Assembly: GCA_021796215.1 (NCBI GenBank)
Contig: JAJYOK010000004.1
Coordinates: 30,217-94,216 of the forward strand
DNA: 64,000 nt
Reading direction: 5' to 3'
DNA from: Bacteroidota bacterium
GTDB lineage: Bacteria; Bacteroidota; Ignavibacteria; UBA10030; UBA8401
Shown here: piece by piece, positions 2,013 through 18,849 of the stretch
How positions within the stretch are numbered: position 1 is the first letter of the stretch
Layout of the letters: the number at the start of each line of letters is the position of its first letter
Notes under the pieces: generated by a model
Database searches by the model: none
What the model was told of the DNA's origin: nothing
The model's input: the letters and a program-made list of their open reading frames with translations, nothing else
Program-made: the position numbers and the translations under genes

Positions 2013-2453
2013 TTACTTTCCTGTTAGCTCATCAACTTTGTCACGATCAATTTCAATCCACACCGGCGCTTCTTTCGGATTGGTCATTCCAAGCCCGGCC
2101 GCCAATGTGCCGATACGATCCAAGCTCGATTTTCGGTTGATCTCTGCTTTCAATACTTCATTTGCGCTGACGATAGCGTTGTAACGGTTTGTCAGATCGT
2201 TCACTTCTTTCGCAAGTTGATTTACTGCAATCACGTTGCTTGTATAGAGCAAGCTCGCAACTGCCAACAAAAAAAGAGCACCGACAATATTAAAGGTCGA
2301 GTGTTTCCGTTTTTCCGTTTTTTTATTCGGGCGAATGGCGTACGCCGGTGCTGTTGCCTGCGGATCAGCAATGACATCGCCATTATAAATTTGACGGTCC
2401 CGCGGCTCAACATCATCAGAAAGCACCGTTGTTCGTGCAGGTATCGCCATCAA
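2013..2453 (-). CDS. ftsL: Cell division protein FtsL-like (small bitopic membrane/coiled-coil protein)
   Basis: 146 aa with one hydrophobic segment (FNIVGALFLLAVASLLY) followed by a coiled-coil-like region. Its position between rsmH and ftsI matches the canonical dcw order. The start overlaps the rsmH stop by 4 nt. Confidence 0.55.
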   Translation of the reverse strand: MMAIPARTTVLSDDVEPRDRQIYNGDVIADPQATAPAYAIRPNKKTEKRKHSTFNIVGALFLLAVASLLYTSNVIAVNQLAKEVNDLTNRYNAIVSANEVLKAEINRKSSLDRIGTLAAGLGMTNPKEAPVWIEIDRDKVDELTGK

Positions 2454-3403
2454 AGCCTTTCTGCTACGCGCATTTTTGCACTTCGCGAACGCGGGTTTTC
2501 CCGCCTTTCTCCGTCGGTAGCTACAACCGGTTTTCTCGTGATAATGCGTAACCTCGGAACACGCGGCACATCCGGCACTAATTTATGTCCCGAGAGAATT
2601 TTGTCGGCAGCTTCTTCCTGAAAAAAATTCTTTACAATTCTATCTTCCAGCGAGTGATATGAGATTACGACAATGCGCCCGCCGACAGCAAGAACTTCCA
2701 TCGCGTCACGGAGTGTTTGCGACAAATTCCCGAGTTCATTATTCACTTCAATACGTAACGCTTGAAAAATCCTGGCTAATGTTTTCACCGAAAACCTTCC
2801 GCCGGCTTTTTTTTCTACAACAAAAGCAAGGTCGCCTGTCGTTTCAATTTTCTTTTCCGCACGATGTTCAACGAGCGCCCGTGCAACACGCTGGGAAAAT
2901 TTTTCTTCGCCATACGACCAAAAAATTCTCGCTAACTCTTGTTCCGAATATGTATTCACCACTGTTCGTGCATCAAGCATTTGCCGTTTGTCCATTCTCA
3001 TATCAAGCACATCATTCGTGCGGAATGAAAATCCTTTTGAACCTTCGTCCAACTGAAACGACGACACGCCGAGGTCCAGCAATAATCCGTGAATCTGTTG
3101 AATGTTCTGTTGGCGAAGAATTGCCTGGATATTCGAGACATTGTCATGCACCAAAATTAAGCGGCCGCTCTTAGTGAACTGTTGCAAATCCACAGTAGAA
3201 GAAAACCGCTGTTGAGCTTCCGCAATGGCGTCGGCGTCCGCATCAATCCCGAGAAGAATTCCGCCCGGTGAAATTTTTTTTGCAACCGTCTCAGCATGGC
3301 CGCCGCCGCCAAGCGTTCCATCAACATATACGCCGCCCGCTGTTGTGATAAGCGCATCAACAGCTTCCTTACGCAAAACGGGAATGTGGTATTCATTGCT
3401 CAC
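2450..3403 (-). CDS. rsmH: 16S rRNA (cytosine1402-N4)-methyltransferase RsmH (MraW)
   Basis: 317 aa with a GTLGGGGHAE SAM-binding motif and overall MraW architecture. It sits between mraZ and ftsL. Confidence 0.9.
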   Translation of the reverse strand: MSNEYHIPVLRKEAVDALITTAGGVYVDGTLGGGGHAETVAKKISPGGILLGIDADADAIAEAQQRFSSTVDLQQFTKSGRLILVHDNVSNIQAILRQQNIQQIHGLLLDLGVSSFQLDEGSKGFSFRTNDVLDMRMDKRQMLDARTVVNTYSEQELARIFWSYGEEKFSQRVARALVEHRAEKKIETTGDLAFVVEKKAGGRFSVKTLARIFQALRIEVNNELGNLSQTLRDAMEVLAVGGRIVVISYHSLEDRIVKNFFQEEAADKILSGHKLVPDVPRVPRLRIITRKPVVATDGERRENPRSRSAKMRVAERL

Positions 3404-3431
3404 GCAATTCGGTTGAAAAACAAATGCTTTC

Positions 3432-3884
3432 TTATTCTGCCGCCGGTTTCAATACTGCCGCGGCAACATTTTCATAGCTGTCATGCTGCGATGCGATGTA
3501 TTCATCGTACATCCGCGGGTTCCATACTTCAATATGTTCCAGCACGCCTAGGATCAGCACTTCGTTTTCAATTTTCGCAAATTGCAAAAGTTCTTTGGGA
3601 AGGATGATGCGGGATTGACCGTCAAGCTGCGCTTCAGTCGCCCATTGCAATAATGTCCTCATCACAAAGCGATGCTTCGGATCGGAGGATGACAGCTTTC
3701 GAATTGACTGTTCAAGCTTTGCCCATTCGTCATTCGGATAAATGAACAGACAAGATTCAAACCCTCGTGTAATGACAAAAAGATCGTTGGCATCCGAAGA
3801 AACATTCTTCCGCATTTTTGCGGGAATGTTTATCCGGCCTTTACTGTCCACCGAATAACTAAATGAACCTTTAAATGTCGACAT
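3432..3884 (-). CDS. mraZ: Transcriptional regulator MraZ
   Basis: 150 aa starting MSTFKGSFSYSVDSKGRINIPAKMRK, with duplicated MraZ/SpoVT-AbrB-like halves. It is the first gene of the dcw cluster. Confidence 0.9.
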   Translation of the reverse strand: MSTFKGSFSYSVDSKGRINIPAKMRKNVSSDANDLFVITRGFESCLFIYPNDEWAKLEQSIRKLSSSDPKHRFVMRTLLQWATEAQLDGQSRIILPKELLQFAKIENEVLILGVLEHIEVWNPRMYDEYIASQHDSYENVAAAVLKPAAE

Positions 3885-4492: not shown

Positions 4493-4894
4493 TTAGAACA
4501 TGCCGTTGCCATTCGGAGAGTCAGCCGGTACCTGCTGTCCGACATCCCACATTTCAATAATCTTATCGTCCCGAAAGCGGAACAGGTGAACAACGGCAAC
4601 GCCTTTTTCACCGGGGCTCATGACAACATTGGAGTGCACTGCAACAAGGTCGCCATCGCCAAGAACATTCTTAATATAAATTTGTGTGTTGGGGAATTTG
4701 TTGTGAGCTTCAATCATCCCTTGCTTGAGCGCAGAAAATTCCGCTGCAAAGTACGGGTTATGATGCTTGCCGTGCATGTCAACATATTTTTCGTATGCTT
4801 CATCGGCGCGGCGAGCCACAACAAGTTTTAGAAATTCAACGGCGGACTGTTTATGATCCTTCATGATGATTTTTTTTAATAACAAGACCGTCAT
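4493..4894 (-). CDS. SnoaL-like (NTF2-fold) protein, putative ester cyclase
   Basis: 133 aa. The MKDHKQSAVEFLKLVVARRADEAYEKYV...IIEMWDV pattern fits SnoaL/NTF2-like proteins. The start could be the internal ATG at 4864. Confidence 0.55.
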   Translation of the reverse strand: MTVLLLKKIIMKDHKQSAVEFLKLVVARRADEAYEKYVDMHGKHHNPYFAAEFSALKQGMIEAHNKFPNTQIYIKNVLGDGDLVAVHSNVVMSPGEKGVAVVHLFRFRDDKIIEMWDVGQQVPADSPNGNGMF

Positions 4895-4944: not shown

Positions 4945-6132
4945 TCAATTCAATGTTTGAACTTCGACGGAAAACACAGCGGGGAGGTTCTCCGCAATCG
5001 CACTCCAATTATCCCCGCCGTCCGGCGACATATATACTTGCCCGCCTGTAGTTCCGAAATAAATTCCGCATGAATCGAGCGAGTCCACTGCCATCGCATC
5101 GCGCAAAATGTTGACATAGCAATCGCGTTGAGGTAAACCTTTTGTAAGCGGTTCCCATTCGTTTCCACCGGACTTACTTCGGTACACGCGCAATTTCCCT
5201 TCCGGCGGAAAATGTTCCGAGTCGCTCTTAATCGGGATGACATAAATGGTATTCGGCTCGTGCGCGTGAACGTCAACCACAAATCCGAAATCAGACGGCA
5301 AGTTGCCGCTCACCTCTTTCCAATTTTCACCGGCATCGTCGCTGCGCATAACGTCCCAATGTTTTTGCATGAAGAGAACATTTGGACGCGAAGGGTGCAT
5401 AGCAATGCGATGAACACAATGGCCGACTTCGGCTTTGGGATCAGGAATATATTCTGACCGTAGTCCCTGGTTGATCGGTTTCCATGTCTTCCCGCCATCA
5501 TCGGTACGAAATACGCCGGCGGAGGAGATTGCAATGTAGATTCGATTGTGATTTTTGTGATCGAGAAGAATTGTATGCAGTCCCATGCCTCCTGCACCGG
5601 GTGCCCATTTAGGTCCGGTACCGTGGCCGCGCAATCCCGCCATTTCATTCCATGTTTGCCCGCCATCGGTTGTGCGGAACAGCGCGGCATCTTCCACACC
5701 GGCATATACTGTATTTGCATCTGTAAGCGACGGCTCAAGATGCCACACGCGCTTGAATTCCCACGGATGCTGCGTTCCATCGTACCACTGATGCGTGGTG
5801 AGCGGTTTGCCGGTTTCGGGAGAAGTGTCATAGACGAACTTGTTGCTTTCAGCTTTGGGAAAACCTTCAGGAGTTTTTGTCGGCTCGCCCGGTTTTGTGC
5901 CTGGCTGAAACCAGGTTTTCCCAGCATCATCCGAGCGTTGTATGATTTGCCCGAACCAGCCGCTTGTTTGCGACGCATACAAGCGATTCGGATCAACCGG
6001 TGAGCCTTTGACATGATAAATTTCCCAGCCTGCAAAGTGGGGACCGCTGACATCCCATTTTGTGCGTTTTCCGTCAGATGCCAGGATGAATGCCCCTTTG
6101 TGCGTGCCGACCAATACTCTAACTCCGCTCAT
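4945..6132 (-). CDS. BNR/Asp-box repeat beta-propeller protein (sialidase-like / Ycf48-like fold)
   Basis: 395 aa with at least five Asp-box motifs ([39 protein letters not shown]). Confidence 0.75.
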
Positions 6133-6247
6133 TTTTAATTCTCCTTTTTAAGTAAGATATAGGTTATTTGCATTTCCGCAATTTACTGTTGAAGAGAAAA
6201 AAATCTTTTAGATTATTTATGTTCGTAGTGGAGCACAACAACACCTG

Positions 6248-6306
6248 ATTTGAAAGTTTTCATATCAACCAATCTGAGGTTGATTTTGTTCCTCAGACTT
6301 TCAAAG
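6248..6306. promoter_or_regulatory. Nested inverted repeat in the PhnB/BNR intergenic region
   Basis: A 9-bp outer arm TTTGAAAGT (6249-6257) pairs with ACTTTCAAA (6297-6305). Inside it, a 6-bp arm CTGAGG (6274-6279) pairs with CCTCAG (6291-6296). The element lies in the 297-bp gap upstream of the BNR gene start. Confidence 0.3.
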
Positions 6307-6429
6307 AGGCGTCTTCCGCTTCTACAAATAATCGGGTGAACCGCAAATCAGTACTCATCAACCAAGCCGCAGCGCGTATCAATTTTCCTTTTATTTCAGA
6401 GTGCCGCGGCTTGCTCTCTCAGCAATGAA

Positions 6430-6861
6430 TTATTTTTGCTTAGGGTACGTGTAATTTATCATCCAGTGTATTCCGAATCTGTCAGTAAACATTCCGAAGT
6501 ACGCTCCCCAGAATTCGTCCTTGAGCGGCTGTTCGATTTTACCGCCGACTGAAAGTCCGTCGTAGAGTTTTTTTGCCTCTTCCTTACTGTCCGCCTCGAT
6601 TGAAATATGGAAGTTATTGCCGGCGGTTAGTTTGTGTCCCATGGATTCAAGAGCATCGGTTCCCATTAAAACGTTTCCTTTGCCAATCGGAAGCGAAATG
6701 TGCATTAGCTTGTCTTTTTCATTTGCCGATACACTATCCGCTACGGGCGTTTCTTTAAATCGCTGGATTGCAATGAACTCTCCGCCGAATACCGATTTAT
6801 AGAACTTAAACGCCTCCTCGGTGTTTCCCGGGAAATTCAAATACGGATTGAATGTTGCCAT
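6430..6861 (-). CDS. VOC-family protein, PhnB-like (3-demethylubiquinone-9 3-methyltransferase-like domain)
   Basis: 143 aa with the typical PhnB pattern (MATFNPYLNFPGNTEEAFKFYKSVFG...IHWMIN). Confidence 0.75.
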   Translation of the reverse strand: MATFNPYLNFPGNTEEAFKFYKSVFGGEFIAIQRFKETPVADSVSANEKDKLMHISLPIGKGNVLMGTDALESMGHKLTAGNNFHISIEADSKEEAKKLYDGLSVGGKIEQPLKDEFWGAYFGMFTDRFGIHWMINYTYPKQK

Positions 6862-6900
6862 GATGATATCTCCTCTTGTATTATGAAATAATGATTTTAA

Positions 6901-7326
6901 TTATTGATTAATGATTTTCTCTTTTTGAAATGGAATGAGTGTGCGCAGTAAATCATCGCGCAAGTACAATCCGCCCCAAATTAATATTCCAACATAAATC
7001 GGAAATAACGCTGTGCTGAACAATGGGGCGTTAATACGCAATTGCGTTGCAACTGCACCGCCAAGATATCCAGTCAACAAGACCGCTCCAAAAATTGAAG
7101 CGCGCGGAATCATGTAGATAATGAGACAAACGAGTTCAATAACTCCGAGAGTGACCGAAAGTCCGACCGGGTATCCAAGCTGTTTGAATGATTCCACGAC
7201 GGGCGGGATTATTATTAAATGGATAATGCTGTCGAAGAGCAAAAACAGAATGGCGACGCCGCTAAGAACGCGTGCGGTCCAAAGTCTCCTTTTCGAGACC
7301 GCAGATAATGCTGAGGCTGGCTGCAT
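6901..7326 (-). CDS. DoxX-family membrane protein
   Basis: 141 aa with 3-4 predicted TM helices, typical DoxX size and hydrophobic pattern. Confidence 0.6.
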   Translation of the reverse strand: MQPASALSAVSKRRLWTARVLSGVAILFLLFDSIIHLIIIPPVVESFKQLGYPVGLSVTLGVIELVCLIIYMIPRASIFGAVLLTGYLGGAVATQLRINAPLFSTALFPIYVGILIWGGLYLRDDLLRTLIPFQKEKIINQ

Positions 7327-7370
7327 GGAGTATCTCCTTCGAACTTATTAAAAATTTATTAATTCCCGTT

Positions 7371-8288
7371 TTACCCTTGCTCGTACACTTGTTTCAATTT
7401 TGCAATGTCGTACTTTTTCATCGGTAAAAATGCTTGGGTTATCCGGTCTATTTGTCCGCGTGTACCGTTTTGCATCATTTCACCCATTGCAGCGGGCCAA
7501 ACCTGCCACGAGAGACCATACTTATCTTTGAGCCAGCCGCACTGCTCAGCTTTCGGGTCGGCGGAAAGCTTTCCCCAGAAATAATCTATTTCTTCTTGAG
7601 TGTCGCAGGGAATAAGAAAAGATATTGCTTCATTGAATGTGAACTTGTGGTCGCGAGCGCTGTCCATTGCGGCAACCCACTGGCTGTTAATCATGAAGTC
7701 GGAAAACATGATTGTTCCTTCTTTCTCCGGTTCCATTCCTTTGGGGTAGCGGATGATATTTCCTCGTTTTGTATCTTGAAATATCGAGAGATAGAAATTG
7801 CTCGCTTCTTCTGCTTTGCCGCAAACAGCTTTCACAAACAAAAGCGATGGAACAATAAATGGCCGCTCTTCGCCGTCAGGATTTGATAAAATAAGCTGCC
7901 ATGTAAGTCCATATTTATCCTGTATCCAGCCATAGCGTTCGCTGAACGGATATTTGTCGAGCGGCATAAGCGCTGTGCCGCCTTGTGACATTTTCTCCCA
8001 CATTGCATCTAAATTCTTCCGTGCATTTTTGTCTCTTGATGGATCAAAATTTAGGATAAATGAGATTGAAGGATTGAACTTGAAAAGCGGCCCCGCGCTG
8101 ATTGCCATGAACGGCTGCTCAGAAAGCTCAAAAGAAACAAGGTCGGCATCACCCGAAGGCGTGTTGCGAAGTGTGATGAAGTTTGTGACTTTCGAATTCG
8201 GAAAAACAGAAGCATAAAACTCGGCGGCTTCTTTTGCTTCTTTATCGAACCACAAATGCGGCGTGATTTTATGTTTGAGTGTTACCAT
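7371..8288 (-). CDS. Tandem two-domain VOC/PhnB-like protein
   Basis: 305 aa with two repeats, each ending in the WGWIQDKYGLTWQL / WLKDKYGLSWQV motif characteristic of PhnB-like (PF06983) domains. Confidence 0.75.
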   Translation of the reverse strand: MVTLKHKITPHLWFDKEAKEAAEFYASVFPNSKVTNFITLRNTPSGDADLVSFELSEQPFMAISAGPLFKFNPSISFILNFDPSRDKNARKNLDAMWEKMSQGGTALMPLDKYPFSERYGWIQDKYGLTWQLILSNPDGEERPFIVPSLLFVKAVCGKAEEASNFYLSIFQDTKRGNIIRYPKGMEPEKEGTIMFSDFMINSQWVAAMDSARDHKFTFNEAISFLIPCDTQEEIDYFWGKLSADPKAEQCGWLKDKYGLSWQVWPAAMGEMMQNGTRGQIDRITQAFLPMKKYDIAKLKQVYEQG

Positions 8289-8315
8289 GGTGCATTTCTC
8301 CTCTCAGTAATGGAA

Positions 8316-8684
8316 TCAGTATCGTTTCTCTTCGTTAAGTCCTCCATCAACAGGACGGACTTCGATGCTACCCAAGCGTGCCGAGGGCCACTGTGATGCA
8401 ATACGAATCGCTTCGTTCAAATCTTTTGCGTTGATGAGAAAGAATCCGCCGAGCGTTTCTTTTGTTTCGGCGAAAGGACCGTCCGTAATGGAAAGTTTTC
8501 CGCTGCGAACACGAACCGTTGATGCGGTGCGAATACTCTGGAGCGGCTCTGCCGTAATAAGCTGTCCGCGCTTTTGAAGTTCCTCAACGTAGCTCATCGT
8601 TTCGCGCCGGAGAATATCCCATTCATTTCTTGAGAGAGTGCTCAGCACATTTTCTTCTTCATACGCCAAACATAGATACTTCAT
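8316..8684 (-). CDS. YCII-related (DGPF) family protein
   Basis: 122 aa with the DGPFAETKE motif and ...LINAKDLNEAI typical of YciI-like/DGPF proteins. Confidence 0.8.
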   Translation of the reverse strand: MKYLCLAYEEENVLSTLSRNEWDILRRETMSYVEELQKRGQLITAEPLQSIRTASTVRVRSGKLSITDGPFAETKETLGGFFLINAKDLNEAIRIASQWPSARLGSIEVRPVDGGLNEEKRY

Positions 8685-8725
8685 ATTCCCACCTCTAACT
8701 TTTTAAGCCGGCGTTTGTTTTGATT

Positions 8726-9178
8726 TCAATTTCTATGTTTCTCAATCGCTTCCTTTACTACTTTACTTTCCCCGGCTTTCCGCACATCGGCAGGCATTTC
8801 CGACATTTCAAATATTTGTCGTACCTCAATCACTGCACCTGAATGAACCTTTACAGCCGGACAACGTTTCGCCCATTCGACGGCTTCTTCTTTCGACTTC
8901 ACATTAATCAACCAGTAACCGCCGACCACTTCTTTTGCTTCAATAAAAGGTCCGTCGGTAACAGTTGTTTTTCCGTCTTTGAATGTGACGCGCGCGCCTT
9001 TCAGTAAGGGATGAAGTCCGTCGAGCGAGATGAGCACTCCGGCTTTTGCGAGTTCTTCATTGTATTTCATCATTGCGGCGACGGCTTCGGCCGGCGGAGC
9101 AAAATTTGCATCGGCTTTTTGTTTCGGCGATGCGTCCGGCTGGTATTCCGGCGGAATCATAAACATCATGAATCTCAT
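8726..9178 (-). CDS. YCII-related (DGPF) family protein, N-terminally extended paralog
   Basis: 150 aa with the DGPFIEAKE motif plus WLINVKSKEEAVEWAKR. A strong RBS (AAGGAGA) sits 8 nt upstream. Confidence 0.75.
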   Translation of the reverse strand: MRFMMFMIPPEYQPDASPKQKADANFAPPAEAVAAMMKYNEELAKAGVLISLDGLHPLLKGARVTFKDGKTTVTDGPFIEAKEVVGGYWLINVKSKEEAVEWAKRCPAVKVHSGAVIEVRQIFEMSEMPADVRKAGESKVVKEAIEKHRN

Positions 9179-9218
9179 TGTTGTATCTCCTTATGTAAAA
9201 ATGATTGAATTTATTGAT

Positions 9219-9245
9219 TCACTATATAGTCGTTTGACACCGGCA
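9219..9245 (-). promoter_or_regulatory. Candidate ECF-sigma-type promoter (TGTCGA-N17-CGAC) upstream of a YCII gene
   Basis: The minus strand reads TGTCGA (9245..9240), a 17-nt spacer, then CGAC (9222..9219). This is about 50 nt upstream of the start of the YCII gene 8726..9178. It resembles ECF -35 (GTC-containing) and -10 (CGxC) elements. An ECF sigma gene is encoded 2 kb upstream on the same strand. Confidence 0.3.
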
Positions 9246-9409
9246 AAAATCGACAACTGAATTCGATTTTTTTTACTCGTTTCTTTCCGGCGACCCGATA
9301 AGGCTGCTTCAGACATTTAATTATTTCGTTATCAATTTGTTTGGAATCGGTAATACTTCCCTGATGCGTGACCATGCTGCTCTCCCGCGCCTTCAAACCG
9401 CGTGTTGCT

Positions 9410-10489
9410 TCAGAATTTACAGTGCACTTCTTTTATTCCCAAAAATCGTCCGAGTTCTTCAGCTGTTTGTTGAATGGAATATTTCTCTTGCTTGCTGTGT
9501 GCACGAAAAAAATTCGTCTCCACGAGAAGATTTTTTTTCTCAATCGTTCGTTTCCATAATCCGGTAACTCTTCCGTCAATTACAATCGGAGGACGAAAGA
9601 TACCGTTTGCAGAAACAGAAATTGTTTGATGTTTTTTATCTATGCTCGCACTTCTGTCTGCGTAGCTGATGAGGAATTCGTCATAAGCGGGGAGAAGAAA
9701 AATGGAATCATATTTTTGCGGCAGGGACAAGGAGTTAGAAAGCCAGTATGTATTTCCATTAATAGTCTTGGCAACGAGCTTAGAGTTGATCGTCTCCAGC
9801 GCATTCCTCGCATCTGTCATTGACAGGCCAGACCACCATGAAAAATCTTGTACCGTTGCGGGAGCGCGGCTGGAAAAATATCTTTGAGCAAGGACCGCCA
9901 TTGATTTTTCTCTGTCAAGGGTTTTCTTTTTCGCAACTCTTTTTTCAAGAAGCGCGTACGTCTGCTTTTTTCCGTTTGTTTTCCCGCTGCAAATTAGTCC
10001 CTCCAGTTCCGCTCGCATGAGAAGATGTGACGATCTGTTCTCGTCAGTTCTGATCTTTGCTTTGGTGAGTTCGGCGACGAGTTCATCACGCGTCAAATGG
10101 TTGTCCGGAGTCAACGCTTTTTCTATGACGCGAGCGCTTTTCGCAAGAATCGCATTCGTGAGTCCAAGCGACTTTTCTCTGAATTTCATTGAAGCGATAA
10201 TTTGCGGCGCTGTAAGTTCGAGCATCCAATAAATATCATCTGCGGAAACAAAATGCCACGTGGGACGCATGAGATGTGTGCGAAGGATTTCTCCTTTATC
10301 CAACGCCGCCTCGATCATTTTGTCCGTCGCGTTAGGAAGCCGCGTTCCGACGGCTAATTTCGCCATCGGAAAATCCTGTGCCTGCATCGCACCCATCCAC
10401 GTTACAAGCTCTTTGGCAGAAGTGAATTTTTTTGTTGTAATTTGCTGATTGAATAAACGAAGAGCCGCGATGTCAGTCAGACTAATCAT
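9410..10489 (-). CDS. YcaQ-family winged-helix DNA-binding protein (DNA glycosylase/crosslink-repair-like)
   Basis: 359 aa. The N-terminal MISLTDIAALRLFNQQI... and overall length fit the YcaQ/DUF1006 winged-helix family. Confidence 0.65.
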   Translation of the reverse strand: MISLTDIAALRLFNQQITTKKFTSAKELVTWMGAMQAQDFPMAKLAVGTRLPNATDKMIEAALDKGEILRTHLMRPTWHFVSADDIYWMLELTAPQIIASMKFREKSLGLTNAILAKSARVIEKALTPDNHLTRDELVAELTKAKIRTDENRSSHLLMRAELEGLICSGKTNGKKQTYALLEKRVAKKKTLDREKSMAVLAQRYFSSRAPATVQDFSWWSGLSMTDARNALETINSKLVAKTINGNTYWLSNSLSLPQKYDSIFLLPAYDEFLISYADRSASIDKKHQTISVSANGIFRPPIVIDGRVTGLWKRTIEKKNLLVETNFFRAHSKQEKYSIQQTAEELGRFLGIKEVHCKF

Positions 10490-10506
10490 TCAAACTCCCA
10501 TTTCCA

Positions 10507-10884
10507 TTAAACATGATTCGCTTTCGATCTCACTTGCCGGCGCTCGCCATTCGTGTTCACCAGTTCTCTCACAGGTCGTACTTCAATACAGCCGACTTGC
10601 GCCGGCGGAATCTTCGCCGCGATTTGAATGGCTTCATCGAAGCCCTTCGCGTCGATCAAATAAAAACCAGCGAGCTGCTCTTTCGTTTCCGCAAAAGGTC
10701 CATCAATGATAGACACTTTTCCGTTTCGCACTCTTACAGTTTTTGCAGTGTTTGTTCGCTGCAGTGCCTCCGATGCAATGCATTGTCCGTTTTTCCTTAT
10801 CGCTGCATCATACTCCATGCACTCGTCATCGGTCATGGCACCAATCTTTTCTTCTTCGCCGTAAACAAGGCAAATATATTTCAT
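10507..10884 (-). CDS. YCII-related (DGPF) family protein
   Basis: 125 aa with the DGPFAETKEQLAGFYLIDAKGFDEAI motif. It is paralogous to 8316..8684. Confidence 0.8.
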   Translation of the reverse strand: MKYICLVYGEEEKIGAMTDDECMEYDAAIRKNGQCIASEALQRTNTAKTVRVRNGKVSIIDGPFAETKEQLAGFYLIDAKGFDEAIQIAAKIPPAQVGCIEVRPVRELVNTNGERRQVRSKANHV

Positions 10885-10945
10885 GTTAGCTCCATGTTTA
10901 ATTCTACATATATCTCAAACAACTTTTCTCAATATAAAATTGATT

Positions 10946-11368
10946 TCATGGGAGCGGTTGAGGACTCCACGAGACCTCCCACAAGTGTCCATCCGGGTCT
11001 TCGAAATAACCGTGGTATCCTCCCCAGAATGCTTTCTGTGCGGGCTTTACTATCGTCGCACCAGCTTGCGCTGCCAACGTCATCACCGAGTCAACTTCGT
11101 CAGTATTTTTCACATTGTAGCCGATTGAAAATTCGGTAGAAGCACGAGGTGCGAGCGGAACATTTGCGTCCCAGGCTAAATCCTTTCTGGAATAGATTGC
11201 GAGGGTCATTCCATTGCTCATGCCGAAAAATGCTACCTCACCATGTTCAAATTCTTTTCCGACTATTCCCTTGGAAGGAAAGCCCAATCCTTCATGATAA
11301 AATTTGTAAGCTCGTTCAAGGCTGTCAACGCCGAGCGTCAGAATTGCAAATCGCGGCTCCATAACCAT
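10946..11368 (-). CDS. VOC-family (glyoxalase/bleomycin-resistance fold) protein
   Basis: 140 aa. MVMEPRFAILTLGVDSLERAYKFYHEGLGF...HLWEVSW is typical of the VOC beta-alpha-beta-beta-beta module. Confidence 0.7.
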   Translation of the reverse strand: MVMEPRFAILTLGVDSLERAYKFYHEGLGFPSKGIVGKEFEHGEVAFFGMSNGMTLAIYSRKDLAWDANVPLAPRASTEFSIGYNVKNTDEVDSVMTLAAQAGATIVKPAQKAFWGGYHGYFEDPDGHLWEVSWSPQPLP

Positions 11369-11404
11369 TTCTCACTTGTTAAATTTATAATCCACGAAAA
11401 CGTG

Positions 11405-12655
11405 TTATCTCAGTTCATTCAGTCTTTTTTCAAGAAATCTTTTCTCCGGCTCTTGTTGAGCTAGTGAAAGCGCCCGCTCGTAGGAGTTTTGTGCATCGTT
11501 CGTTCTTCCTAACCTTCTGCATAATTCTGCACGCGCCGAATGTGCTAAATGGTACTCTGCTAAGTCGCCGCGCGCAAGTATGGAATCAATAATATCCAAA
11601 CCTGCCTGAGGCCCGTCGCGCATCGCCACGGCAACCGCACGATTCAATTCAATTACCGGCGACGGCTCAATGCGAAGCAGAACATCGTACAAGCCGACAA
11701 TTTCCCGCCAGTCCGTTGCATCAGCGGTTGGCGCTTCTGCATGCACAGCTGCGATTGCTGCCTGAAGCGTGTACGGTCCGAACCGCTGCGTGGAAAGCAC
11801 ACGCTCAACCAGTGCAACACCTTCTTTGATTTGTTCGCCGTTCCACAAAGAGCGATCCTGATTTTCCAACAAAATTAAATTACCGTCTGCTGAAGTGCGG
11901 GCGGTGCGCCGCGATTCCTGCAGAAGCATCAAAGCTAAGAGTCCCATCACTTCCGGCTCCGGAAGTAATTCCATCAACAGTTGTCCGAGACGTATCGCAT
12001 CGCCGGAGAGATCGGCTCGCGTCAGTTCCTCGCCGAATGTCGCAGAGTATCCTTCGTTGAAGACGAGATAAATTACCTGAAGCACGGTATCTAAACGCGC
12101 CGGCAATTCTGCTTGCGATGGTACCTGGTATGGAATACGGGCGTCGCGGATTTTTGCTTTAGCACGAACAATGCGCTGTGCGATTGTGGAAGGCGTTGTG
12201 AGGAATGCGTGCGCAATTTCTTCCGTCGTGAGGTCGCACACTTCCCGCAATGTGAGAGCAACGCGTGCATCGGGCGATAACGCCGGATGACAGCAAGTGA
12301 AAATCAGCCGCAGTTCATCGTCTTCAATATTTTTGTCTATCTGTTCGGCGGGATCAATGGTATCCGCTTCGAGCTGGTCGGCAACTTGTTCAAACGAGGA
12401 ATCAAACTTCGCCCGCCGCCGCATGCCGTCAATGGCTCTGAAGCGCCCGGCGGAAACGAGCCACGCGCGGGGATTTGCAGGAATGCCCTCGCGAAGCCAT
12501 TCTTCAGCCGCTGCCGCAAATGCATCGTGCATCGCATCCTCGGCAACATCGAAATCACCAAGCAAACGAATGAGCGTCGCAAGAATGCGGCGTGATTCGG
12601 CGCTGTAAACCTTTTCGAGCGTTTGACGAATGTGTTCTGGAGAACTTTCCGCCAC
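11405..12655 (-). CDS. ECF-family RNA polymerase sigma factor with long C-terminal TPR-like extension (ECF42-like)
   Basis: The sigma-2 region reads [38 protein letters not shown] and the sigma-4 HTH reads ...[16 protein letters not shown]. About 200 aa of helical-repeat C-terminal extension follow. The track ORF extends to 12823 but has no sigma-like sequence there. I place the start at the GTG at 12655 (GGGAAG 7 nt upstream). DGPF/YCII genes follow on the same strand. Confidence 0.75.
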
Positions 12656-12843
12656 TGGGCTTCCCTTCTGAATTATATTGCAAAATACTTTATGCGGAGG
12701 AAAAAGGCAAGAATTGATAATCTTGCGGAAACTTCCCTCCCTACTATCCAATTCCACCGATCTCAGTTGAGATTCTTGCCTTTCTTTTGTAGCTTCTCGA
12801 AAGCTTACGTCACCATGCACCAAAGAAAAGAAGGGAAAAAATT

Positions 12844-14229
12844 ATGGCGATCCGTATATTGTGTCTGCTTTTCGTCGCTCAGATTCTCTTTGCCGGCGAG
12901 GACCCGCGTATGAAAAACGCAACCCGCGAAGACAAGAACGGCTGGATATATATCCATCTCGAAGGAACGCCGCGTGAGATCGGTTATCAGCACGGCTCAC
13001 TGCTCGCAAAAGAAATTGACGATGTCATGCAGATGTTCGCGTACTATCTGAAAGGATCGACGCAGAAGGACTGGAATTTCTACCGCGACGCCGCCGAACG
13101 GATGTTCTGGCCCAAGCTCGACAAGGAATATCAGGAGGAAATTGAAGGAATCGCCGAAGGAATTCAGGCGCACGGTTATAAGTACGATAACATTGACATC
13201 ACCGCGCTGAACGGCAACATCGAGCTCGTTTCGTACTATCTTCCTTACCTTGCCAACAAAGCGAAAAAAGATTCCATGAACAATCGCGCGCCCGGTTATT
13301 GCAGCGCGTTCATTGCAAACGGAAGCTACACCGCGGACGGCAAGATCGTCATCGCGCATAACAACTGGAGCGAATACATCATCGGTGAACGATGGAATGT
13401 CATCGCCGATATTGCACCCGCGAGCGGCCACCGCATTCTTATGGATTGCATGCCCGGACTGATTCACAGCGGCGACGATTTCGTCATCAACGACGCCGGC
13501 ATTCTCTACACCGAAACCACCATCACGCAGTTCAAAGGATTCGACGAAACAAAAACGCCGGAGTTTATGCGGGCGCGCAAGGCGGCGCAATATGCCGGCA
13601 GCATAGACGACTTCATTAAAATTATGAGCACTGATAACAACGGTGGCTACGCGAACGATTGGCTTGTCGGTGACATCAAAACGAATGAAATCGTACGGGT
13701 CGAGCTTGGATTGAAAAACATCCGCGTGTGGCGCACGTTCGACGGCGTGTATGTCGGTTCGAATTTTCCAAGCGACGAAAAACTGACGAAAGAAGAAACG
13801 ACATTTAATCCGAACGATTCAACCAATTCACCGAACGCGCGCAAGATTCGCTGGGAACAATTGGTGAATGAGCACAAAGGGAAGATCAACGCGGACATGG
13901 CAATGGTGTTCGAGGGCGACCACATTAATGCATTGGAAGGCGTGAAGACAAGCGGGCGCTGTGTTATTTGCGGACACAATGACGAAGACCCGCACGGTAC
14001 ACCGGAATTCAGTTGGGCGCCGTTTTTTCCTGCCGGCGCTGTTCAGGGAAAAGTCTGCTCAACGTCGCTCGCAAAGGAAATGAAATTCTGGGCGCACATG
14101 GGGCATCCGTGCGGAGAAGATTTTATTGCGTCGGCATTTTTTGAAAAGCATCCGGAATTTCAGTGGCAGGCAAAATATCTTCACGACATGAAATCGTACC
14201 CATGGACGTTGTTTGAATCGAAACACTGA
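12844..14229 (+). CDS. Secreted Ntn-hydrolase-like protein (peptidase C45 / acyl-CoA:6-APA acyltransferase-like)
   Basis: 461 aa with an N-terminal signal peptide (MAIRILCLLFVAQILFAG). An internal G-C site (APGYCSAF) resembles the autoproteolytic Gly-Cys nucleophile site of C45/Ntn hydrolases. Confidence 0.45.
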   Translation: MAIRILCLLFVAQILFAGEDPRMKNATREDKNGWIYIHLEGTPREIGYQHGSLLAKEIDDVMQMFAYYLKGSTQKDWNFYRDAAERMFWPKLDKEYQEEIEGIAEGIQAHGYKYDNIDITALNGNIELVSYYLPYLANKAKKDSMNNRAPGYCSAFIANGSYTADGKIVIAHNNWSEYIIGERWNVIADIAPASGHRILMDCMPGLIHSGDDFVINDAGILYTETTITQFKGFDETKTPEFMRARKAAQYAGSIDDFIKIMSTDNNGGYANDWLVGDIKTNEIVRVELGLKNIRVWRTFDGVYVGSNFPSDEKLTKEETTFNPNDSTNSPNARKIRWEQLVNEHKGKINADMAMVFEGDHINALEGVKTSGRCVICGHNDEDPHGTPEFSWAPFFPAGAVQGKVCSTSLAKEMKFWAHMGHPCGEDFIASAFFEKHPEFQWQAKYLHDMKSYPWTLFESKH

Positions 14230-18612: not shown

Positions 18613-18687
18613 GGTGGCCATAGTTCAGTTGGTTAGAATGCCAGGTTGTGGCCCTGGAGGTCGTGGGTTCAAGTCCCACTGGCCACC
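18613..18687 (+). tRNA. tRNA-His (anticodon GTG) with encoded G-1
   Basis: Cloverleaf read by eye. The 8-bp acceptor stem pairs G(-1)GTGGCCA with TGGCCAC-C. The D arm is GTTC/GAAT, the anticodon stem CCAGG/CCTGG with loop TTGTGGC (GTG), the T arm GTGGG-TTCAAGT-CCCAC. The 3' CCA is not encoded (CAA follows). Confidence 0.8.
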
Positions 18688-18776
18688 CAAGATACATTAA
18701 GAAGTAAAATGAAAAATTGAAAGGGTCCATAAAGTTTCAAACCCTTTTTACAATTTTTACATTTTCATTTACTAAA

Positions 18777-18849
18777 GTCCCCATCGTCTAGAGGCCTAGG
18801 ACCGGAGCTTTTCAAGCTTCTAACACGAGTTCGAATCTCGTTGGGGACA
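18777..18849 (+). tRNA. tRNA-Glu (anticodon TTC)
   Basis: GTCCCCATCGTCTAGAGGCCTAGGAC... closely matches bacterial tRNA-Glu. The anticodon stem is GGAGC/GCTTC with loop TTTTCAA (TTC). The T arm is ACGAG-TTCGAAT-CTCGT and the acceptor GTCCCCA/TGGGGAC. CCA is not encoded. Confidence 0.85.

Follow-up and report, generated by a model that had tools for sequence, protein, structure and literature searches.

A predicted two-unit ECF42 sigma factor module with a five-gene output operon in an Ignavibacteria genome

Which of the genes that cluster with an extracytoplasmic function (ECF) sigma factor are controlled by it, and what does their control achieve? This question is raised by a locus in a 64-kb stretch of contig JAJYOK010000004.1 (hereafter, the window) from a Bacteroidota bacterium of the class Ignavibacteria. 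At positions 6430-12655 on the minus strand, a gene for a sigma factor of the ECF42 type, one of the most widespread sigma-factor groups, is accompanied by genes for DGPF/YCII proteins, VOC/PhnB proteins, a DoxX family protein, and a DNA glycosylase. The first-pass annotation of this DNA had treated the sigma factor as the head of one continuous array. The reading that we favor, with a probability of roughly 75%, is a two-unit ECF42 module in which a sigma factor unit is followed by a five-gene unit behind a single predicted ECF42 promoter, and in which the output of the second unit would be of a defense type.

The interval is filled by nine minus-strand open reading frames (ORFs), as determined by ORF calling and Pfam searches (Table 1). 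From the sigma factor gene onward, the intergenic gaps measure 36, 61, and 17 nt, then 231 bp between the glycosylase gene and DGPF2, and then 41, 27, 44, and 39 nt. The array had been described as nine tightly spaced genes on one strand, which is correct for the strand and for the junctions of 17 to 61 nt, but not for the single 231-bp gap. A region of 188 bp upstream of the sigma factor gene is shared with a divergent gene for a phospholipase-B-like protein.

The 231-bp gap carries the only exact match to TGTCGA-N17-CGAC in the window, at 9229-9255 on the minus strand and ending 50 nt before the ATG of DGPF2. This site can be written as TGTCGATTT-N14-CGACTA. From other genomes only, we collected 53 distinct sites that precede array genes and converted them into a position matrix, such that the window site was not part of the training set; this yielded the consensus TGTCGATTt-N9-cc[g/a][a/t][a/t]CGACTA. 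The window site reaches 37.0 bits (median of the training sites, 37.9 bits), and the runner-up on either strand of the window reaches 2.3 bits. The matrix scan revealed no ECF42-type site upstream of the sigma factor gene, VOC1, DGPF1, or the glycosylase gene, and a looser search of the whole window (TGTCGA-N14-19-CGWC, with one mismatch allowed) gave no other site in promoter position near the array. The motif that had been proposed as a check upstream of each array gene is thus present once, and it is absent in front of these four genes. When the gap is aligned with that of the closest relative (locus L082; loci of relatives are labeled L002-L085), only the -35 element, the -10 element (AAACGACTATATA), and the ribosome-binding site are conserved, whereas the remainder has diverged. 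Furthermore, the spacing of the promoter matches that of promoters recognized by Sinorhizobium meliloti RpoE10.

Because one ECF42-type site is present in the 231-bp gap and none precedes the sigma factor unit, the predicted regulon within the window comprises five of the eight neighboring genes, DGPF2 through PhnB (9178 to 6430). Unit 1 (12655 to 9410), with the genes for the sigma factor, VOC1, DGPF1, and an AlkZ-like glycosylase, would be transcribed from a promoter in the 188-bp divergent region. Unit 2 (9178 to 6430), with DGPF2, DGPF3, the tandem PhnB gene, DoxX, and PhnB, would be expressed when the active sigma factor recognizes the promoter in front of it. Since unit 1 has no ECF42-type promoter, the sigma factor probably does not control its own gene directly.

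The model implied by the first-pass annotation, in which the sigma factor heads and autoregulates one nine-gene operon and the whole array constitutes its regulon, now appears quite improbable. It draws on the shared orientation of all genes, on the short length of every junction but one, and on the 231-bp gap, which has no convincing intrinsic terminator and might let transcription continue from the first unit to the second (read-through). However, ECF42-type sites are missing both in front of the sigma factor gene and inside unit 1, the best score outside the promoter is the 2.3 bits mentioned above, and the sole site is internal and stands in front of only five genes. The split into two units is also kept in L082, and RpoE10 of S. 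meliloti is likewise not autoregulated (PMC6180224).

Other scans of the gap and its surroundings gave no additional elements. An Rfam scan of the whole window returned two tRNAs only, both distant from the locus, and the 231-bp gap has no riboswitch or leader by this measure. The gap was also searched for small ORFs, and none was credible. Scans of positions 6000-13000 with sigma-70 and terminator consensus sequences gave counts that are not above those for shuffled sequence, and these counts were not used as evidence.

Table 1. Coordinates of the genes and the predicted promoter of the ECF42 locus, together with surrounding features, in the 64-kb window
Feature	Position	Strand	Supporting match
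ECF42-type sigma factor, 416 aa, GTG start	11405-12655	-	Sigma70_r2, Sigma70_r4_2, DUF6596 (6e-37), one sub-threshold TPR
VOC1, VOC/glyoxalase-fold protein; second gene of sigma factor unit	10946-11368	-	Glyoxalase PF00903 (7e-15)
DGPF1, YCII protein, 125 aa, motif DGPFAETKE	10507-10884	-	PF03795 (7.6e-21)
HTH_42 DNA glycosylase, AlkZ-like (QxQ); last gene of sigma factor unit	9410-10489	-	PF06224 (1.6e-68), full length
Predicted ECF42-dependent promoter, TGTCGATTTTTGCCGGTGTCAAACGAC(TA)	9229-9255	-	TGTCGA-N17-CGAC; 37.0 bits
DGPF2, YCII protein, 150 aa, motif DGPFIEAKE; first gene behind promoter	8726-9178	-	PF03795 (1.8e-20)
DGPF3, YCII protein, 122 aa, motif DGPFAETKE	8316-8684	-	PF03795 (1.4e-21)
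Tandem two-domain PhnB-like VOC protein, 305 aa	7371-8288	-	PF06983, two stretches (1.9e-68)
DoxX_2 family, putative membrane protein, 141 aa	6901-7326	-	PF13564 (1e-17)
PhnB/YjdN-like VOC protein, 143 aa; last gene of promoter-driven unit	6430-6861	-	PF00903 (1.6e-13), PF06983 (3.3e-09)
BNR/Asp-box beta-propeller protein, cytoplasmic, 395 aa	4945-6132	-	PDB 3B7F (8.6e-71)
SnoaL-like protein, 133 aa, between BNR gene and dcw cluster	4493-4894	-	PF12680 (7.5e-08)
mraZ, border of island	3432-3884	-	
Start of dcw cluster (mraZ, rsmH/mraW, ftsL-like gene)	2013-3884	-	
Phospholipase-B-like gene, divergent, other border of island	12844-14229		
Two tRNA genes	18614-18849	+	

The assignment of the sigma factor to the ECF42 group rests on several features of its sequence and surroundings. 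Its domains comprise Sigma70_r2 (residues 17-83), Sigma70_r4_2 (118-169), and DUF6596 (187-285), followed by the sub-threshold TPR match (373-404). The only NCBIfam model matched is TIGR02937 (sigma70-ECF; 54.9 bits versus a cutoff of 42.9), which is a generic model for the ECF superfamily. More than 8000 homologs were found, and the best 120 of these are mostly 413-430 aa in length, with most aligning over 98-100% of the query. A longer ORF with a TTG start (11405-12823) was rejected in favor of the GTG start at 12655, because homologs measure 413-423 aa, with alignments that begin at residue 1.

An AlphaFold2 model of the sigma factor, built on 45 homologs, has a mean predicted local distance difference test (pLDDT) score of 78. 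The last ~190 residues are all helical and mostly exceed a pLDDT of 85, and residues ~230-416 form consecutive paired helices with pLDDT values of 82-98. When the model was compared with the PDB by using Foldseek, the best matches were all TPR proteins, namely the consensus TPR 8CHY, Tom70, subunits of the APC, and TTC0263 (2PL2). The E values are modest, from 6e-4 (8CHY) upward, and 2PL2 matches with a target-normalized TM-score of 0.70 and a root mean square deviation of 3.9 A. Among the solved structures searched, none spans the C-terminal extension. Based on the Pfam match to DUF6596, the helical model, and the Foldseek matches, the ~230-aa extension is predicted to consist of DUF6596 followed by a TPR-like solenoid, as has been reported for ECF42 proteins (PMC8999054; PMC7826278).

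No anti-sigma domain was found by Pfam in any of the genes between 4493 and 16385, each of which has a Pfam assignment. The portrayal of the protein in the first-pass annotation, as an ECF42-like sigma factor with a sigma-2/sigma-4 core, a helical-repeat extension related to TPR or DUF6596, and no separate anti-sigma gene, is thus well supported. As judged from its sequence, the sigma factor carries every ECF42 hallmark that we examined: the ECF core, the DUF6596/TPR extension, the lack of an anti-sigma factor, the adjacent DGPF genes, and the TGTCGA-N17-CGAC promoter. Overall, the interval is a genuine, well-formed, and ordinary ECF42 locus, typical of a widespread stress switch with a built-in regulatory tail.

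Identities between the sigma factor and its homologs from Ignavibacteriales and metagenome-assembled genomes of Bacteroidota range from 65 to 92%, and the same span covers homologs from Planctomycetota, Nitrospirota, Acidobacteriota, Gemmatimonadota, Verrucomicrobiota, cyanobacteria, Pseudomonas, and Mesorhizobium. This conservation, at 65-77% identity over at least 10 phyla (loci L002-L081), is unusual for an ECF sigma factor. The G+C content of the sigma factor gene is 53%, versus 44-49% for the rest of the array genes. The high conservation and the difference in G+C content suggest that the sigma factor is strongly constrained, that the module has spread horizontally, or both.

A survey of related loci was used to place the array in a broader context. 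For this census, we took 80 species-level loci with orthologous sigma factors and counted protein families near the sigma factor gene. YCII/DGPF proteins are by far the most conserved neighbors, with at least one in 70 of the 80 loci, at least two in 39, and at least three in 19. Less frequent are VOC or PhnB proteins (21/80), BNR proteins (12/80), DoxX (6/80), and AlkZ-like glycosylases (2/80). Pfam searches of 77 otherwise unclassified array ORFs revealed RibD_C (15 ORFs), AHSA1/SRPBCC (9), and DUF1428 (4), with fewer alpha/beta hydrolases, DUF1801 proteins, and SnoaL proteins. Of the 80 loci, 64 contain one or more sites with a score of ≥18 bits, and ~600 kb of shuffled DNA contains none. 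These sites mostly lie just downstream of the sigma factor gene on the same strand, and the first gene behind the site encodes a YCII protein at 55 of 95 sites. In many phyla, orthologous sigma factor genes are surrounded by arrays that combine multiple DGPF genes with PhnB/VOC, DoxX, RibD_C, and SRPBCC genes. This recurrence of the same families, in combination with a conserved promoter that is absent from shuffled sequence, strongly disfavors the notion that the genes are neighbors by chance, without shared regulation or function, which we consider extremely improbable.

The three DGPF genes and their motifs (DGPFAETKE twice and DGPFIEAKE once) were read in the translations exactly as the first-pass annotation had listed them, and the proteins match PF03795 with 73.6-77.2 bits versus a cutoff of 24. 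DGPF2 also has a relative in the PDB, 1S7I (PA1349; 9.8e-11). Likewise, the three PhnB/VOC proteins that had been listed, one of them tandem, are recovered through matches to PF00903 and PF06983. PF06983 matches two stretches of the 305-aa protein (228.7 bits in total), which also aligns in two stretches with the PhnB structure 3OMS (9.5e-29). The 143-aa protein matches the NCBIfam YjdN model at 7.5e-18, which is under that model's cutoff. The DoxX protein scores 64.6 bits with DoxX_2 (cutoff, 26.3 bits). When the rest of the window was searched, no more members of the array families were found.

The presence of three DGPF and three VOC/PhnB genes had been regarded as paralog amplification, and the identities of the proteins contradict this interpretation. 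DGPF1 and DGPF3 are 53% identical, DGPF1 and DGPF2 are 32% identical, and DGPF2 and DGPF3 are 43% identical. The PhnB-type proteins of the window are 24-30% identical to one another, and the two halves of the tandem protein are 30% identical. Each DGPF paralog has nearer orthologs in other genomes, at up to 75-83% identity. DGPF1 is 83% identical to its ortholog in L012, and DGPF2 is 88% identical to the ortholog at the same position in L082. Orthologs in L083 and L085 are ~75% identical to the tandem PhnB protein (in these cases also 305 aa) and ~66% identical to the 143-aa PhnB protein. No close ortholog of VOC1 was found among the compared loci. DoxX has orthologs inside the same arrays in L082 (72%) and in L012 and L039 (52%). 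Because the paralogs share only 24-53% identity and have closer orthologs elsewhere, they are old and not locally amplified, and arrays with multiple DGPF genes are common. Recent amplification in situ was rejected since these identities are too low. Thus, the pattern of three plus three genes brings together separate subfamilies of ancient origin that turn over rapidly.

Comparison with the nearest loci points to the same turnover. In L082, the sigma factor is 92% identical to that of the window, and the flanking genes are syntenic and 82-94% identical. The layout there begins with the sigma factor and AlkZ-like genes, which are followed by a gap with a 32-bit promoter and then by three YCII genes, DoxX, and PhnB. 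Relative to the window, this locus (L082:10001-14754) retains the sigma factor, DGPF2, the AlkZ-like protein (74%), and DoxX, but VOC1, DGPF1, and the tandem PhnB gene are missing and different YCII paralogs are present. The content of the array thus appears to turn over quickly, even between these two close relatives. Two loci from Ignavibacteriales (L083:11367-20968 and L085:11411-20000) have much longer same-strand arrays with two ECF42-type promoters, and these arrays also hold genes for RibD_C, DUF1428, a BBE-type FAD oxidase, DUF998, and a MATE efflux pump. Genes for thymidylate synthase and DHFR are located directly upstream of the sigma factor gene in both of these loci.

The last gene of unit 1 had been annotated as YcaQ, and we reassign its product to the AlkZ-like proteins. 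Within the PF06224 fold, the motif (Q/H)xQ defines the AlkZ-like (AZL) subfamily, and QxD defines the YcaQ-like (YQL) subfamily (PMC9040887). The only relative in the PDB is AlkZ (5UUJ; 1.1e-12), whose catalytic QAQ aligns with a QAQ in the window protein. This QAQ is followed by D, and the motif reads as the (Q/H)xQ of the AZL proteins and not as the QxD of the YcaQ type. AlkZ-like glycosylases repair adducts of, or give resistance to, DNA-alkylating genotoxic natural products, and their genes often adjoin VOC resistance genes (PMC9040887). In our survey, the 2 loci with an AlkZ-like gene near the sigma factor gene are joined by the closest relative, L082. AlkZ was rejected as a regular partner of ECF42 at this frequency, which is about the level expected by chance.

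Immediately beyond the nine genes, 297 bp past the array, lies a gene for a cytoplasmic BNR/Asp-box beta-propeller protein. The matrix scan found no ECF42-type promoter in this 297-bp gap. The BNR protein shares 71-82% identity with its orthologs from two genome loci of other lineages (L011 and L012) and 78-85% identity with those on metagenome contigs. In the 12 surveyed loci with a BNR gene, it ends the array at the 3' end, and in several loci an ECF42-type promoter is located directly upstream. We also considered 39 metagenomic BNR loci with enough upstream sequence; the promoter precedes the BNR gene in 12 of them, and at least one gene of the module is close by in about half. The BNR gene is a recurrent and highly conserved companion, and it probably belongs to the ECF42 neighborhood. 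A literature search for a link between BNR proteins and ECF42 found no mention of one. A SnoaL-like gene lies beyond the BNR gene, and its homologs are near the sigma factor gene in 2 of the 80 loci; SnoaL-type Pfam matches also occur among other array ORFs. This gene could possibly be a peripheral member of the module, although the link is weak.

On its outer sides, the island is bordered by mraZ and by the divergent phospholipase-B-like gene. The start of the dcw cluster, to which mraZ belongs, flanks the island, and the two tRNA genes are located ~6 kb past the other end.

What, then, would the five-gene output accomplish? The products of unit 2 would be small cytoplasmic proteins that bind or detoxify ligands, plus the membrane protein DoxX, and together with the AlkZ-like glycosylase they may protect the cell from reactive or genotoxic small molecules. 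Based on superfamily membership and gene context, such protection is most likely the role of the module, because it agrees with the targets of RpoE10, with the ECF56/SigG regulon, and with the recurrence of VOC/PhnB, RibD_C, SRPBCC, DoxX, MATE, and AlkZ-like families. In addition, the DGPF proteins may feed back on the TPR extension.

A narrower function was also considered, in which the locus is a specific quinone or redox-stress system and not a general defense against xenobiotics or genotoxins. The analogy is to the MhqR regulon of Bacillus, which includes VOC dioxygenases and a DoxX-like protein. VOC and DoxX genes are indeed combined in unit 2, and DoxX is found again in related arrays, in some cases as the first gene after the promoter (L012 and L034). 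However, DoxX is present in only ~6 of 80 arrays, ring-cleavage dioxygenase activity is not known for PhnB-type VOC proteins, and the AlkZ-like glycosylase here, along with the MATE pump and RibD_C in relatives, suggests a broader range of toxic compounds. We therefore regard a dedicated quinone system as unlikely. The detoxification of quinones or electrophiles, as put forward in the first-pass annotation, may be inferred from the gene families, and VOC-type targets of ECF42 have already been reported in S. meliloti (PMC6180224). Our searches of the literature on TGTCGA with ECF42 and on DoxX, MhqP, and VOC found nothing useful.

A different division of labor is conceivable for the DGPF/YCII proteins. 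They might be mainly regulators that bind the TPR extension in a feedback loop, such that the promoter and DGPF genes form a regulatory core and the VOC, DoxX, and other genes are variable cargo. The prevalence of DGPF genes in the survey (70/80 loci) and their position as the first gene behind 55 of 95 sites are consistent with this proposal, as is the exchange of cargo even between close relatives while DGPF2 is kept at 88% identity. Up to four or five divergent DGPF paralogs per array fit poorly with a single regulator. Moreover, relatives with the YCII fold include enzymes, such as the dehydrochlorinase TftG. A review describes the ECF42 extension as essential, proposes that it works through protein partners that could be YCII proteins, and notes YCII-sigma factor fusions (PMC8999054). 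A search of recent literature on YciI/DGPF function found nothing decisive. We consider a mainly regulatory role possible but tentative, and the DGPF proteins may be partners of the TPR extension in a manner that is compatible with the protective role that we favor.

A more elaborate proposal would combine these elements. The module could be a sensor and defense system against DNA-reactive natural products that is mobile across phyla, in which DGPF proteins, and possibly the BNR protein, bind the toxin or adduct, dock on the TPR extension, and switch the sigma factor on, while VOC/PhnB proteins sequester or inactivate the compound and the AlkZ-like glycosylase repairs DNA. This full scheme is doubtful in our estimation. 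If it were true, the locus would provide the first concrete biochemical context for DGPF proteins.

Several considerations weigh against the two-unit module with a defense-type output. The promoter assignment is a computational prediction, and the training sites of the matrix were picked by the exact TGTCGA-N17-CGAC core, such that only the flanking positions contribute independent information to its scores. Read-through across the 231-bp gap, as mentioned above, would blur the separation of the two units. The link between the glycosylase and ECF42 appears sporadic, at about the frequency expected by chance. Finally, the defense role is derived from broad superfamilies (VOC, YCII, and DoxX) whose members have many activities.

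The locus leaves the general picture of ECF42 unchanged, and it offers a clean and compact layout with one conserved promoter and a predicted five-gene output operon. Relative to the first-pass annotation, our reading differs in the division into two units with one conserved promoter, the AlkZ type of the glycosylase, the age of the paralogs, and the probable inclusion of the BNR gene. The predicted presence of an AlkZ-type DNA-adduct glycosylase in the sigma factor operon is also of interest. Furthermore, the survey adds an extended promoter consensus (TGTCGATTT...CGACTA) that is common to many phyla, as well as a recurrent accessory set composed of PhnB/VOC, RibD_C, SRPBCC, DUF1428, DoxX, and the highly conserved BNR beta-propeller.

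ECF42 proteins have been studied in several species, to which the locus can be compared. In Streptomyces venezuelae, DGPF genes are reportedly the main targets of ECF42, with promoters of the TGTCGA...CGAC type. The summary of this work in PMC8999054 (Liu, Pinto and Mascher 2018; SVEN_0747, SVEN_4377, and SVEN_7131) describes an extension that is required for activity, without an anti-sigma factor. As far as that summary extends, the two systems share the ECF core, the ~200-aa TPR extension, the lack of an anti-sigma factor, and the adjacent DGPF/YCII genes. In contrast, the window represents another phylum, its array is larger and more mixed, and its sigma factor unit includes a gene for an AlkZ-like glycosylase.

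RpoE10, the ECF42 protein of S. meliloti, induces genes for glyoxalase-like and hydrophobic-ligand-binding proteins from TGTCGG-N17-CGTC promoters, and its own operon is not induced (PMC6180224). The VOC-type targets, the promoter spacing, the lack of autoregulation, and an adjacent YCII gene correspond to what we find or predict for the window. However, the YCII gene of S. meliloti is located upstream of the sigma factor gene and is not induced, and the targets are distributed over two replicons (PMC6180224), whereas DGPF genes head the predicted target operon of the window, which also includes DoxX and the tandem PhnB gene. In Pseudomonas putida, a knockout of ECF-10, which belongs to the same sigma factor group, affects biofilm formation as well as resistance to stress and antibiotics (PMC8999054). 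The ortholog from Pseudomonas indica (L073) shares 72% identity with the sigma factor of the window, and YCII genes precede the sigma factor gene there, unlike the order in the window, and no PhnB, DoxX, or AlkZ gene was detected near it.

AlkZ and other AZL glycosylases (PMC9040887; PMC7367128) share with the window protein the PF06224 fold, the QxQ motif, and VOC-type neighbors. The window gene differs in that it is part of a sigma factor operon and not of a recognizable biosynthetic gene cluster, and its product is ~20-25% identical to AlkZ, as estimated by eye over the alignment.

The final comparison is with ECF56, a group that includes SigG of Mycobacterium tuberculosis, which controls genes for glyoxalase/PhnB-like proteins, DHFR-like proteins, and hydrolases, and which is linked to mitomycin C induction and DNA damage (bioRxiv 10.1101/2020.01.30.927608). 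ECF56 proteins are also extension-bearing ECF sigma factors, and their PhnB/VOC, RibD_C, and alpha/beta hydrolase families are likewise present in the surveyed ECF42 arrays. They belong to another ECF group, however, with an inhibitory extension of the NTF2/SnoaL type, a CGATGAGTT-N14-GGTC promoter, and no DGPF genes. Even so, the resemblance between the ECF42 accessory set and the DNA-damage-linked ECF56/SigG regulon, together with the extended promoter consensus and the recurrence of that set, could guide work on the signals to which ECF42 sigma factors respond.

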